In this document: positions 44,501-50,500 of the stretch, in pieces
Numbering within the stretch: position 1 is the stretch's first letter
Layout of the letters: each line of letters opens with the position of its first letter
NCBI GenBank assembly: GCA_964106915.2
Contig: OZ066914.1
Length of the DNA: 64,000 nt
Strand: one strand, 5' to 3'
Source of the DNA: Podarcis gaigeae
Taxonomy: Eukaryota
Position numbers: made by a program

Positions 44501-47500
44501 ATTATATAACTGCTACTTACCCCCCAAAGCTTAATTAAGTCTGCAAATCAAAGAGACCCTGTGGAAGATGTTGCTCTGCTCACTGCTATATTCCAGTTCC
44601 CCAAGAAACTGGAGTATTCCAACAAGAACAAAGATTTCTGAAAGGCCACCTTGTTCATACAGATGTGCGAGCAAGGGAGCCGCTGTGAGCTAACATGAAA
44701 ATATAAAAGCAAACTTAATATTTGTTGCTCATTCATAAACATGCAACATACTTGAAATACTTAATACCAACCATAAGTAAACCATATATAGTACTCAACA
44801 GCAGTGATAACTGAATTTTAACAGCCCCAACAAAATGAATACCATGGATCCAAAAAGCAACACTGTTTTGCCTGAAAGCTTTCCCTTGCATTCTCCCAAA
44901 AAACCACCCTCGAGAGTAGAGGGAACCTCAAGAACAGTATGGGATGGGTGGTGAGGAAATGCAGTTGAACGGGGAGATCGGTAAGCTGCCTTGTGCAAGT
45001 AGAAGTCCTTTCAACTTATGTAAGACAAAGTCTGGATCCAAAGCTTTACTTTTATCTCATGCTGATAATGGTCACCAATTACTGGTAGCAACAGCTCTTG
45101 AAAGTTTTGCTTTAATAAAATTATGAGTAGTAGTAGCTTACTTAAACACACTATTTTTATACAACCTAAATATAGCTGAGGAAAGTATCACCATTTCTGG
45201 GATGTTTGACTGAATCAAGAAGTGTTTCAAAAAGTACAATTAGCAACCCAAAGTACATCTTTCCTCAATCGTCTTTATAAAAATAATTCACATCATTCAG
45301 TACTAAGTGTTCACTAACAAAGAATGTAAGGACTAAGAAATAAATACTAGTATTTTATTGTTAGAACACAAATCTCCAAGTTATACAAATTAGATGGATC
45401 AAACAGCATTGCCCAACATCAAAAAGGTAGAAAAGATAGGCCCAGATCCATACTGGAACTTAACGTCCCTACTACAAGCAAGTATTCAAAATGAAGGCTA
45501 TAGTCAGTTGTAAGCACCAGTAAGCGCCTGCCATGTCCTTAAGGGAATGAGCTGGATTGCACTATAAACATGTAGAATTCTGCTCCTGTCCCTCCCAAAG
45601 GCTATATAGTTCTCCCCCAATCTAGTGGGAAATTTCCAGAGTGGTATGCAAAGAGAGGTTATGTAAAAAAATATAAATGTAATCCAAGCATTCATCTTAA
45701 ACTGCAGTAAAGTTCAATTCTAGTCTGCTACATTCTATTCCTGTTGCCCTTGCATTCCAGAATCACATTTGTGCTACATTTTAGCTTCCAACATCAACCT
45801 ACAAGATTGATATCATTATTTGGAAGTACTGACCATTTAAAACCACAATACCAACAAATCCAGAATTCGTCTGGATATTGACCTGATTTCAGAGAAGCTG
45901 GGAAGGTGAAGTAAGCCACTGAAGTTAAGCTCTCTCTTGTTTGTGAAAGGCACATTACATCATAAAAGCAATTTACATAAAATGTGCTACCAAAACACTG
46001 AAGGATATTGTCTCATGTGGCTTCAATCACAACCAACTCTCCTTAAGAATAATCAAGTTCACGGCAGGGTTCTTTTAAAATAAAAAAAGCATATGCTTCC
46101 CTGTAATTTGTTTCCTAGTAAATACTAACGGTGATTGTGAAAAATGGTCGTTCTATTAGATTATATTTTAAAAGCAAATTCTGATGCAGATGATCTGCCT
46201 TTTTTCCAGGAAAGTTGACACAGTAATGCCAAAGCAAAACATGGCAAAACTGCCATACAGTCACTTTCAGACAGTTCAACAAGCTTCAAGGTAACCAGAA
46301 TATGTACCTTCACACAGTTTTAACAAGTGCCATAATAGCTCTGAGCAGTCATGATCTTTTGCAATGAATGTCTTGCAGAGTAACATTTAAAACTTTCAGC
46401 GTCTAAAACTTATATAGGATTTTGGATGTGACATTCCTGGTTGAATAAGCCATGAAGGAGTATCTGGTGCAAGTATCTTGTGTTTATGCTGGTTTTAGTA
46501 CTTTGAGCCCAGGCTCTTTAACTCAGTTTCCCATTATGTCTGAAATTGGGAGCACTGGTTTAATGTTGATTTACTAACCAGCATCTGAAATCTGATTTGC
46601 AAACTTGTATTAAACCTCAATTCCCCATTTCAGAGGAAAGTGTGACTTAAAAGCAGCTTGGGCTGAACCTGGCACACATGGGGAGGCAGGAATAAGCTTG
46701 ATGCTTATTCTTGCTTAATGAACTATGGTTTATTAAGAACTTTACCTCTGAGCCTGCCATATGTTAATAAACACTCATGAAGCATAAGTGATTAACATAT
46801 AACTAGAGTAACATGTGAGTCCATGTATAATGAAGCCCTAATGCTTCAGTTTGTTTTCCTGCTCTAGTCAGACTCACCTTTTCCAAAGTTACATATTTTT
46901 TATGATGTTTTTTTCTGATCTACCCACATAAAATAGCTTTGTAAGCTATTACTGCACCCATATTTTAGGTAGCTATCACCTCATGCTATTCACTGAGCAT
47001 TTTTCGGATGGGAATATCAATCAGGGAAACTAAACTGCTTGGCAGTGTCTCTAAGCACACTGTAGAAGCAAACTGAATTCAGTGGGGTGGGGAAGTAAAC
47101 AGAATTAAAAAAAAAAAACAGTTAAATATATCGGCAAATGTCTTACTGCAGTGGTTGCAGAACAATGCCACTAGCAATTACATTACTAAATTAATACCCA
47201 CCACCATATTAACAGTGCAATTCCACTGCCTGAAAATTCAAATTACCACCGTTCACAACCTTCTAATAATCTCTGTCTGGAGAGACCTTCCATACTTGCT
47301 TAAACTGAAATCTATTATTCCTTCTCCAAAGAAAAAGTTAGATCAAAGTCTCCAAAACACTTAATAAATCCAGGTTGAAGACATCTGTGCCACTTTCAGA
47401 CAAGAGAACACCATCTAGATGGAACAATCCTGGAGACTCTGGGACAAGTGAATCGTGTTTGATTATAATCCCTCCAATACGTTCCATAAAACTGCAGATT

Positions 47501-50500
47501 TCCCGATTTACTCTCTTCCTGCTTTTCTCCATAAATTCATGGGACATATCTTGGTTCCATGCTTTGCGGGGTACAATATTAGACCAGACAAGGATGCTGT
47601 TCTTGAATGTTATCTTAATATGTATTATATCTTTCTTCATTTGTCTTATGATATCATAATCTGCGTATGTCCCAAGGTCATTTCCTCCTAGATGGATCAC
47701 CAATATATCAGGATCTGTTAGGCGCCGCCGTGTGTGCAATAGGCTGGGTATCAACTGATCCCACGTCATGCCACTCTTTCCTAGCCAATGTAGTTTGGCA
47801 TCCTCCAGTCGAATGCCCAACTGTGGGCCAAAGCTTCTTTCAAGTGCTCTTTTTTCTGCCCAGAAAACGTAAGAATGACCACATATCCATACCTGTTTCT
47901 GCTTTCTTCTGCCATCTGCTATTAAGAGAACAAACATACATTAATGCTTCATAAATTTTGTGGCCCAAGCACCTCCTGAAAACTTTTTTCAGTGTTGTCT
48001 GAATTATTCCATGTAAAAATCAAAACATGAGACACCTCTATCTTAAAATACATGGCATAATAATCCATAAAGTCAACTCTTTATTTGAAGATTGGTGTGT
48101 AAAGTTTACAGGTAAAAATGCCTGCATTCAAGTTATAAGATCAATGGAAAGGAATGCATGCTCATGTACCCTTTTGATCAATCTTACAAGAGCAAGTGAA
48201 AATATCTTTTCTAAATAAAGTTGCTAACAATCCATTTAGATCTTGATAAAGTATATTGGTTTGATAGATGTGCTCTACTCAGAATGAAGTTCTTCCAGAT
48301 TTTTTTCCAAAATTAACAGAAGGTCAGGAGCAGAAGTCCATACCTTTCAAGCAGACCAAAAAGAGAAAGCTTCGACTGTTAAGAAAGCCCAGGGAGCAGA
48401 GTTATACTTCTCTATTAAATCTTATGTAGAAATTTATGTAACCATTTCCACGCTTTGCCTGACAGGATTATTTTTTGTTGCCACATGACACCTCCATTTC
48501 TAAAAATTCATTTTCTGAACAAAACGCTAGAAAGCTTGCACTAGGGATAGATTTTCTATTACTGCCCTGAAAGAATAGTAATTTGATCTCTTCTAAACAA
48601 TGTAGACCTCCAGTATTAAACTACAGAAAATTATCAGTTTTACATTTCCCCTGCAATTTTCAACTTGTTTTTGTTTATGAAGTCTTTTCCTGACATGCAA
48701 TCCAGTCAATTTTATAATTGTAAAAATGGTTTTATTGTTTTTAGAGTTTGCATCTTTTGTATTTGATCTTATTGTACATAGCTTCAATAGCATATGGCTC
48801 TGAAGCAGTCCATAGACCTGTAAAATAACAATAACGATAATAGTAATAGCTCAACAAAAGTGATGATAATTTTTGGAGTTCAAATATATTCTATGTGACA
48901 TTGGACAAGAAAATAGTGGATGATGATGTGGCCAGGGATCTTGCAGTCTTTGTGCTAAATAATAATGTGCGTTCTAAATTATACTCTTTGAGGGTTTCAA
49001 GTTTTTGCTTATCACTAGAGGCAACAATACGTTCAGATTCTTAGGACTTCTCTCCTGAACAGGTCTTTTAGTTCTGGGCTAAGCAGTAAAACAGGTGAGC
49101 AAGCATTTCAGCACCCAAGAATTACACTGAATGTGAAACAGAAGAAAGCTGTTGATTGGCACCTTTAGCTTACAGATCAACAAACTTCACAAGATGAAGA
49201 TCTGGTGATGGTAGCTGGGCTACTTCATGAACGGCACTTCTACACTTGGATCACACACAAAAAGAGTGGGGAAAAATTGCAGTTTGGGAGTGTACTGTTA
49301 AACATGATGGGAGTCAAGGATAGCTTGGTTCGCTTCCAGTTAAGCACGGAACTCAACTGTATTTTCAGTGCTGACTCGACAACAATCAAGGCTTCTTCAC
49401 ATCATCCTTAGGTACTGTTCTCCATCCTTGGCTGACATAGCAAAAGGCTTGTAAATAGACTGTAGTACTGCATCTTGGCTGCAGTTACTCCACCCTGGCT
49501 ACAGGCCTCTTCATTCTTGTGCCCAAATGATGCTGCTGTTCAAGTTCCTGGTACATTCAGTGGTGTGATCAAATGAAACCCACCCCTTTCTCATCATTGA
49601 AAAGTTCATGACTACAAGATCATTCCCCCAGTTAATAAGAACATAATAAATATGTAGGCTTAAAAAAAAAGAGGCTTCGCGCTTTAATTTATCTTGGACC
49701 TGCAAACATAATATTTTCAAACACATGTGAACTTCATTACATAAAACAGTTCAATAAAAAAGAAGATTGTTGAACAGTGAAAAGAGTTAATGATTGTTCC
49801 ATCAATCAAACAATGGAGAAAAAAATGAACATCTAGCATGGTTAAAGTGTAATGTAACTGATGTTTTTGCCACGAGGCACCTAATGCCCATCTCAGAAAT
49901 AGGTGTATTTGGATTTGCTTTATGCTGTATATTTAGAATGAGCAATCTCATTACATTCGGAAAAAGACACTTTCAAAGCTACTCACCCACAGTAGTTACA
50001 GGAGGCTGAGAAGGGTAGTGTTGTGTGCTAGTTGTTGGTGGAAATGATCCGCTAGGGGGAGGGTAAGGATAGCTTGGGTAACCACTTGAAAGGGGAGGGG
50101 GAGAAAGACACAGTGTTATGCATTCTTTAGTTAATATTTCCATTCATAAGCAATTTTTTTTAACGTTTAAACAATTTATAATAGACAAACAGAATTTAAA
50201 AAAGAGCCACTGATGCAGATATAAACGGTCAGAGTAATATTCAAGACCATGAGAAATTTGTTGTCATCCATAGATTTCAGAGGTATCAATGTTTTAATCA
50301 ATGTTATTCAGATATGTATAAATAAATTTCAAGTTCCCTGATCAAAGTTTCTTCACATTTGTGGATTAAAGCTGAAGACAGGTAGAGGCACTCAGTCTAA
50401 TTATTCATGGTTCATTCTGTTAGCAGTTAACAGGTTTGTACTTTGTTGCATTATTTTCATTTGAAAAGGTCTATGTTGCCTTGGTGGTTTCATTTACAGA

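Follow-up and report, generated by a model that had tools for sequence, protein, structure and literature searches.

Does an intact SGNH-type domain standing by itself in lizard DNA mark a retrotransposon that has otherwise disappeared, or does it belong to a host gene? We addressed this question in a 64,000-nucleotide stretch of Podarcis gaigeae (contig OZ066914.1 of assembly GCA_964106915.2; hereafter the window), which is CpG-depleted vertebrate DNA containing no N. An earlier note, made from the sequence alone, had taken the domain at 47338..47915 for an orphaned hydrolase of an Ngaro/DIRS retrotransposon. The anatomy of the surrounding gene and the conservation of the domain across amniotes argue instead that it is a conserved alternative last exon of TSG101, a reading to which we give a probability of about 85%.

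Gene anatomy around the SGNH-like reading frame

The minus strand carries an intact open reading frame (ORF) at 47338..47937, running for 199 aa from ATG to TAA without an internal stop. At 200 aa its segment ranks second in length among the 6675 stop-to-stop segments of the window (mean 18.2 aa), and a chance ORF was rejected as the explanation of 199 codons. The translation contains the motifs VWICGHS, WLGKSGM, HLGGNDLG, LVWSNIVPR and RVN, the pattern from which the earlier note had proposed an SGNH domain, and this proposal was confirmed by the intact ORF and by the fold of its AlphaFold2 (AF2) model. The model of the 192 exon-encoded residues reached a pLDDT of 96.3 and a pTM of 0.92, and it shows the flavodoxin-like alpha/beta/alpha fold of the superfamily. 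A fold search with it returned 161 PDB chains at E<=1e-3; the PDB matches listed were all SGNH/GDSL-type hydrolases or designed scaffolds, with GDSL-like lipases and acylhydrolases at the top (TM 0.75-0.77). Against a viral fold library the model matched generic phage SGNH esterases and tail proteins and nothing else.

By sequence, the Pfam check that the earlier note had suggested did find Lipase_GDSL_2, at 22.1 bits (E 2.4e-4) against a gathering score of 32.9, which the relatives P0062-P0064 and P0008 exceed, unlike the window's ORF. An NCBIfam scan of the ORF gave zero matches, and a PDB search with the ORF as a single sequence gave chance-level matches only. A profile built from the ORF and 17 relatives reached 3719 representative clusters at E<=1e-3, 623 of them at E<=1e-30, and the Atlas returned family-level SGNH clusters with Chordata and Mollusca as the commonest phyla and nothing more specific; the SGNH family of the ORF is large and eukaryotic. 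Despite the sub-cut-off Pfam score, we regard the assignment to the SGNH/GDSL fold, which draws on the predicted structure, as solid.

TSG101 itself was recognised by UEV exons and a Vps23_core match on one strand. The Podarcis TSG101 isoforms X1/X2 (P0018, P0020 and P0021) align to the minus strand collinearly and exon by exon in tblastn, with high-scoring segment pairs (HSPs) in the order 61419-61366, 56793-56710, 55971-55903, 55480-55316, 54819-54682, 52264-52199, 50068-49988 and 47931/47919-47341. The exons common to both isoforms are 93-100% identical to the Podarcis proteins, and the SGNH exon is 96.4-97.4% identical over 193-197 aa. Together with the in-phase canonical splice sites, this collinearity supports a UEV-SGNH isoform built from the following features, given in the direction of transcription:

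61366..61419, minus strand: TSG101 start codon and first coding exon (HSP bounds; tblastn with P0020 residues 1-20; ORF 61225..61608 on the minus strand), inside the 60-62 kb CpG island (CpG observed/expected 0.71); at its 3' end the HSP probably extends into the intron
54682..56793, minus strand: UEV exons (second to fifth HSPs above; 93-100% identity to the Podarcis isoforms)
55247-55513 and 55867-56004, minus strand: Pfam UEV segments (E 5.7e-28 and E 2.6e-5; six-frame scan)
52199..52264, minus strand: first proline-rich exon of TSG101 (HSP bounds; tblastn with P0020 residues 150-200, 95% over 22 aa), flanked by an AG acceptor and a GTAAGC donor
49987..50084, minus strand: last exon common to both isoforms, the second proline-rich one, ending ...YPSQPPVTTV plus one base (tblastn 50068-49988, 100% to P0020/P0021)
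49986-49981, minus strand: donor GTGAGT, phase 1, after ...ACTGTGG (junction DNA)
47916..47940, minus strand: 3' splice site, a pyrimidine-rich tract with a tandem AG-CAG (NAGNAG) acceptor (DNA read)
47338..47918, minus strand: putative alternative terminal coding exon of TSG101 (SGNH-like domain, 193-194 aa, plus TAA at 47340-47338; tblastn, junction DNA and AF2)
46729..46734, minus strand: candidate poly(A) signal AATAAA, the nearest to the stop, 604 nt downstream (motif scan)
46564-46559, minus strand: ATTAAA, also present (motif scan)
39440..39642, minus strand: canonical next exon, start of the coiled-coil stalk (translation; AG acceptor 39644-39643), which we take to be TSG101 stalk sequence, recognised from its translation and not by a named match; weak coiled-coil Pfam matches fall on 39392-39763 (minus strand)
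38257..38550, minus strand: segment with the canonical Vps23 core/steadiness-box exon (Pfam Vps23_core, E 1.2e-17, 64.1 bits, cut-off 26.8)

The donor after 49987, the SGNH acceptors and the acceptor before 39642 are canonical sites with a common phase. Because the canonical acceptor (39644-39643) is in the same phase, the SGNH exon falls within the intron 49986-39643, about 2 kb into some 10.3 kb and on the strand of TSG101. As read from the DNA, two in-phase junctions are open to the exon that ends at 49987, one with 39642 and the other with 47918/47915, and these would be mutually exclusive 3' choices.

The earlier observation that the domain starts at a splice acceptor was accurate: AGs at 47920-47919 and 47917-47916 follow the pyrimidine-rich tract (...TTAATAG-CAG-ATGGC), and the end coordinate that the note had given, 47915, is the first base past the second AG. 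Use of the first AG starts the exon at 47918 (...TTVADGRRK, the 409-aa X1 form) and use of the second at 47915 (...TTVDGRRK, the 408-aa X2 form), so that the one-residue difference between X1 and X2 is explained by the tandem NAGNAG acceptor. What looks like the start of the ORF, its ATG and first six codons (MFVLLI), is an in-frame translation of the intronic pyrimidine tract, and the ORF's stop-to-stop frame opens only at 47940. Four other family members, P0001-P0004, are 199-aa ORFs that likewise open with MFVLLIAD, which is their tract and acceptor in translation, so that conservation of the splice-site region extends to the nucleotide level in them too.

Conservation in amniotes and the search for a parent element

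Among the 47 longer protein matches to the ORF, 23 are linked to TSG101 and come from squamates, turtles, crocodilians, echidna, wallaby and manatee. The annotated isoform consists of the UEV, the proline-rich region and the SGNH-like domain (407-409 aa) and occurs in RefSeq entries as well as in Ensembl/UniProt ones. Against the C-terminal half of TSG101 isoform X1/X2 the ORF shows 96-98% identity in three Podarcis species, and against the isoform of non-Podarcis squamates, turtles, Crocodylus and mammals 70-93%. Besides Podarcis, the squamates with the isoform are Lacerta, Zootoca, Varanus, Euleptes, Sceloporus, Anolis, Sphaerodactylus, Crotalus, Naja and Ophiophagus; the non-squamates are three turtles, Crocodylus, a merged Alligator model, echidna, wallaby and manatee. 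These entries, from reptiles, a monotreme, a marsupial and the manatee, have the architecture deduced for the window and are 70-98% identical to its exon; they are automatic predictions with no assigned function, and the window's own protein lies outside the searched collection. A search seeded with the manatee domain recovered the same set (25 matches at E<=1e-40), with no further mammals and no birds. No isoform was seen for human or mouse among the protein-search matches, which cover annotated proteins and not genomes. The claim that the domain is orphaned and isolated was not upheld, since it appears as an alternative terminal coding exon of TSG101 that is annotated in many amniotes.

We compared the exon across species. 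The 193-residue SGNH region aligned with no gap in 16 of 16 species, with 89 of 193 columns invariant. Identity to Podarcis in this region was 70-76% for three mammals, 74% for Crocodylus and 77-78% for turtles; in the same species it was a similar 73-80% for the proline-rich region and 88-94% for the UEV domain, but 72% for the UEV of one turtle model. In a neighbour-joining tree of 199 family domains, 30 of them from the TSG101 clade, this clade was monophyletic in 100 of 100 bootstraps. A tree of the exon within the clade recovered Squamata (100 of 100), Lacertidae (100), turtles plus crocodile (91), Testudines (89) and Mammalia (46). A gapless exon whose tree tracks the species tree points to a single gain that preceded the amniote ancestor, and we take its vertical descent from that ancestor under purifying selection to be shown at the level of sequence comparison.

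The same annotations bear on a different explanation, in which a small gene of its own, with a separate promoter and at least one 5' exon, lies within the TSG101 intron and encodes the domain, and the isoforms are artefacts of gene modelling. In Carettochelys insculpta the annotation gives this exon to a separate 230-aa protein (P0005, LOC142014737) with an unrelated N-terminus. That models in this region can err is clear from Alligator sinensis, where P0038 (808 aa), annotated as a UEVLD isoform, has a UEV and LDH followed by a second UEV and SGNH, and is apparently a merged model of the neighbouring UEVLD and the TSG101 short isoform. Set against these two entries, 22 TSG101-linked proteins (of 23 matches) share the UEV-containing N-terminal region upstream of SGNH, and RefSeq and Ensembl/UniProt both carry the model. 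Homology also begins exactly at the acceptor, in phase with the upstream donor, and no in-frame ATG is available upstream except the one inside the pyrimidine tract, six codons ahead of the AG. We consider a nested gene very improbable.

To look for a parent element, we scanned all stop-to-stop segments of at least 38 aa in six frames of the 37.8-58.1 kb region (n=263; 130+133) with Pfam at E<=0.1. The Pfam cut-off was reached by Vps23_core and by one UEV segment only; below it were the second UEV segment (24.5 vs 27 bits) and the SGNH ORF, and the other sub-cut-off matches of the 263 segments included no RT (reverse transcriptase), RNase H, integrase or endonuclease family. In the rest of the window, 150 of the 155 segments of at least 69 aa were scanned, five from the 21-22.7 kb CpG island being left out, and these 150 gave BSD, Ldh_1_N and one sub-threshold match at chance level. 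According to the earlier note, neither an RT/RNase H nor a tyrosine-recombinase ORF lay nearby and split direct repeats were absent, and both statements stood: no such ORF was found among the 263 flanking or the 150 other segments, and there were 0 direct and 0 inverted repeats of at least 40 bp in 41-54 kb, a search that old diverged repeats would escape. Rfam gave 0 matches at gathering score over the whole window, and no virus-like stretch was found in it, the ties of the SGNH family aside. With flanking domains and repeats absent, there is at this sensitivity no element around the exon. An Ngaro/DIRS element would bring RT/RNase H and recombinase ORFs and split direct repeats, and a CR1/L2 element a coiled-coil ORF1 upstream of an endonuclease/RT ORF2; none of these was found, and no RT or endonuclease lies nearby. 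A young element fragment was rejected as an explanation; the flanks hold no remnants of RT, recombinase or endonuclease and no repeats.

These results also speak to whether the ORF could be an undegraded leftover of an Ngaro/DIRS (or CR1/L2) insertion that has no host function. The retroelement links of the family and the confinement of the domain to a single exon would suit such an origin. The empty flanks would not, nor would a domain that keeps the same protein position and length, with no indel, in 16 species from all major amniote lineages except birds, and whose tree follows that of the species. Neutral DNA, moreover, would not hold 70-76% protein identity between lizard and mammals. The chance of a mere leftover is close to negligible. 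The pattern of domestication that the earlier note had described survives in one respect, as this is a retained domain and not a decaying fragment, and fails in the other, isolation, as the exon belongs to TSG101.

The active site and the origin of the domain

In SGNH hydrolases the block V His serves as general base (PMC4021074). At this block [D/N]GVLLS stands in all 31 sequences of the clade (the window, P0001-P0007 and P0018-P0040), and most non-TSG101 relatives read DG[V/I]H. In the tree set the column is Leu in 30 of 30 clade members, and His is the commonest residue (89%) among the 169 non-TSG101 relatives; the Asp of the block is Asn in 9 of 31 clade sequences, its share in the tree set being 0.70 of 30. 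The Ser of block I (0.97), Gly of block II (1.00) and Asn of block III (1.00) are retained in the 30 sequences (GHS, GxxG and GGND). The trimmed alignment holds 38 columns that are at least 80% conserved among the 169 relatives, and the clade keeps 35 of them, departing at the block V His (to Leu), at one Pro (to Lys) and at one Leu (to Ile). Judged by the features of the superfamily, the ORF has the Ser, Gly and Asn, lacks the block V His (DxxH) and falls short of the Pfam gathering score; with that His missing, it is a member of the fold and not a canonical enzyme. A fold and pocket that are kept while the general base is removed are, on the residues present, the signature of a pseudoenzyme or a very atypical enzyme.

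Could the domain nonetheless be a working esterase or lipase, brought by the UEV to ubiquitinated or PTAP-bearing targets? The three retained catalytic positions and the 35 retained columns would be expected of one, and relatives hold the full S-G-N-H set; the ZfL2-1 esterase is catalytically active (PMC3905857). Yet such an enzyme would have to operate with Leu for the block V His in 31 of 31 sequences and with Asn for its partner Asp in 9 of 31, and we consider a working esterase or lipase improbable. One relative, P0062 (Anolis sagrei, 357 aa, uncharacterised), contains both Leu-type and His-type block V motifs, which suggests two domain pieces, or a chimera of a TSG101-type domain with another family member.

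We then asked which sequences the domain is related to outside TSG101. A Pfam scan of the 138 top family representatives found RT_RNaseH_2 in P0151 (2.2e-17), an RVT_1 fragment in P0147 (1.4e-5) and a weak Phage_integrase in P0162 (9.8e-4), the other representatives having SGNH alone or no domain. Recombinase-like N-terminal regions were present in 6 of 147 extensions by iterative profile search, and BLASTP clustering of the extensions yielded a six-member group with five members in common with that set. The N-terminal region shared by this recombinase-linked subgroup aligns along almost the whole of Cre, with weak E values (0.0055-0.15); Pfam Phage_integrase was found in 3 of 7 aligned members (best E 9.8e-4), and the region lies directly upstream of a GHS-type SGNH domain. 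This is like the arrangement of Ngaro elements of amphibians and fish, and for amphibian Ngaro elements PMC9210276 places an SGNH ORF after the tyrosine recombinase. Unlike Ngaro, the window has no RT/RNase H, recombinase or split direct repeats, and whereas the recombinase-linked relatives keep the catalytic His, the TSG101 clade has lost it. The N-terminal extensions of relatives were mostly unrelated singletons on clustering, and most family members can therefore not be assigned to element or host.

Among solved structures, the best match of the family profile was 4c1b, the ZfL2-1 ORF1p esterase (E 4.3e-8), with yeast IAH1 at 2.2e-3; the recombinase-linked subgroup matched 4c1b at E 4e-6. 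ZfL2-1 shares the fold (fold-match rank 25), its profile match spans block II onward only (positions 101-250), and the similarity is one of family level; unlike ZfL2-1, the window has no coiled coil and no ORF2, and the His is missing. The earlier note had named best hits to CR1/L2 ORF1 esterases as an outcome that would speak against its Ngaro reading, and 4c1b formally is such a hit; since there was no Ngaro entry among the 17 PDB sequence matches, this match cannot separate L2 from Ngaro. We know of no solved Ngaro esterase. PAF-AH Ib was absent from the sequence matches, among which IAH1 came no closer than 2.2e-3. Cellular SGNH hydrolases (PAF-AH Ib alpha, IAH1, TesA and bacterial GDSL-like lipases) have the same fold (TM 0.65-0.77) at 11-18% identity in structural alignments, and a cellular PAF-AH/IAH1 orthologue was rejected as an explanation.

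The highest identity outside the clade (43-46%) belongs to fish cold-shock-domain proteins of 1300-2000 aa with CSDE1/CSD domains. These proteins (si:dkeyp-121d4.3) share the VWICGHS and GGND blocks, the former identically, and carry SGNH at the C-terminus; they keep the His and have no UEV. No RT or recombinase domain was found at E<=1e-5 in any of 27 large representatives (12 of them with CSDE1/CSD), or in the four fish proteins. In a further set, P0065-P0070 (1309-3112 aa), 3-6 SGNH domains of the same family stand in tandem, and P0066 also has CSDE1 and PRY/SPRY. The likeness to the fish proteins raises the possibility that a cellular SGNH gene ancestral to the fish cold-shock-domain/SGNH proteins, rather than a retroelement, was the source of the exon. 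In the neighbour-joining tree, however, the fish group was sister to the TSG101 clade in 6 of 100 bootstraps only, with P0102 (18), P0135 (16) and a multi-SGNH group (13) also appearing in that place. The fish proteins may, besides, themselves hold a captured element domain, and a single exon fits retroposition equally well. We regard capture from a cellular gene as rather unlikely, while taking it seriously.

The earlier claim of an Ngaro/DIRS origin stands as a possibility: it is favoured by the recombinase- and RT-linked relatives, and disfavoured by the fish proteins being closest and by a best sister grouping of 18 of 100. A retroelement origin of the SGNH exon is plausible on these comparisons, and it is a weaker inference that an Ngaro/L2-type retroelement pool, or a cellular relative of it, supplied the domain before amniotes diverged. 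A possible parallel is the texim genes, fish SGNH hydrolases captured by Helitrons, a family described in PMC4021074 as patchy in animals, linked to mobile elements and related to CR1 esterases, with the texim genes reported absent from tetrapods.

The proposed short isoform and its setting

Several points weigh against a conserved alternative last exon of TSG101 with a disarmed domain. The evidence for the splice consists of automatic gene models made by others, phase, site quality and conservation. The Carettochelys protein P0005, with its non-TSG101 N-terminus, makes an independent nested transcript possible. Protein searches found no bird, amphibian or fish TSG101 with the exon and only one placental cluster, gaps for which loss or incomplete annotation may be responsible. 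The Ser, Gly and Asn remain, as do two other His residues conserved across the family, and some catalysis by an unconventional base is possible in principle. Finally, the neighbour-joining tree gives no direction of transfer between host and retroelement.

If the alternative last exon of TSG101 is used as proposed, the two products can be compared directly. Canonical TSG101 has the same gene, promoter, UEV and proline-rich region as the SGNH isoform, and the SGNH-like domain replaces its stalk and Vps23 core/steadiness box (39642-39440 and within 38550-38257). Ubiquitin and P(T/S)AP motifs are ligands of the TSG101 UEV, the half that the short form leaves out assembles with VPS28, VPS37 and MVB12 into ESCRT-I, and overexpression of an N-terminal TSG101 fragment blocks late-domain function; by their titles, reports by Martin-Serrano (2001) and Demirov (2002), cited in PMC5478143, belong to this background. 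The short splice choice would yield the UEV, the proline-rich linker and a His-less SGNH fold, without the stalk and the Vps23 core. Through its UEV such a protein should remain able to bind ubiquitin and P(T/S)AP motifs; it would not assemble into ESCRT-I, and its SGNH-like domain would act as a non-hydrolytic (or atypically hydrolytic) module that binds a ligand or membrane. With the UEV kept and the ESCRT-I assembly half lost, the isoform would therefore be an ESCRT-I-independent adaptor or competitor at membranes. We put forward this function, with the SGNH-like domain binding ligand or membrane without hydrolysis, tentatively and at less than even odds.

A more specific scenario can be drawn from the same elements. 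The TSG101 UEV is recruited by late-budding retroviruses and retroelements, and the esterases of the Ngaro/L2 pool include one studied case of membrane binding. A retroelement esterase from this pool might have been captured by TSG101 before the amniotes, disarmed by the change of His to Leu and kept for >300 million years; the resulting UEV protein would compete for P(T/S)AP late-domain ligands at membranes and so modulate or restrict budding, and would later have been lost in most placentals and birds. As a whole this chain is speculative and a long shot.

The rest of the window places TSG101 in its neighbourhood, where a BSD-domain exon and an LDHA-like gene are followed by TSG101 (38257-61419) on the opposite strand, presumably the usual vertebrate order GTF2H1-LDHA-TSG101. 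The other coding features are:

645-857, plus strand: BSD-domain exon, GTF2H1-like (Pfam E 4.7e-10)
30486-30857, plus strand: LDHA-like exon (Ldh_1_N E 1.5e-19), whose best PDB matches are rat and rabbit LDHA, with several mismatches in the alignments

Two CpG islands were found. That at 20000-23000 (GC 0.51-0.57, CpG observed/expected 0.59) is probably the LDHA promoter, and that at 60000-62500 (GC 0.52, observed/expected 0.71) overlaps the start of TSG101. Within a TSG101 intron, 50900-51800 is GC-richer and has long overlapping frames on both strands, among them the window's longest stop-to-stop segment (212 aa, 51153-51788, minus strand); Pfam gave no match at E<=0.1 on these frames, and the stretch may derive from an old repeat or from a piece of an element.

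Few ESCRT proteins have been studied as much as TSG101, chiefly in human and mouse. The isoform is apparently unannotated in these two species, which may explain why no paper describing a TSG101-SGNH isoform was found in the paper library searched; the matches were unrelated by title or abstract, or dealt with LINE (long interspersed nuclear element) elements and ESCRT generally (PMC5478143). The isoform is already present in automatic annotations, and in kind it is a host gene with a mobile-element-type domain, of putative element origin, as an exon. A conserved form of TSG101 without the ESCRT-I half would mean either that, in most lineages of amniotes, the UEV serves a function independent of ESCRT-I or that the short form regulates the canonical one. 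The domain would also offer a clean example of a pseudoenzyme, with one catalytic residue gone and the rest retained. Since retrotransposons and fish proteins with RNA-binding domains are where its SGNH family otherwise occurs, the exon may therefore bear on how accessory, non-polymerase domains of retroelements enter host genes.

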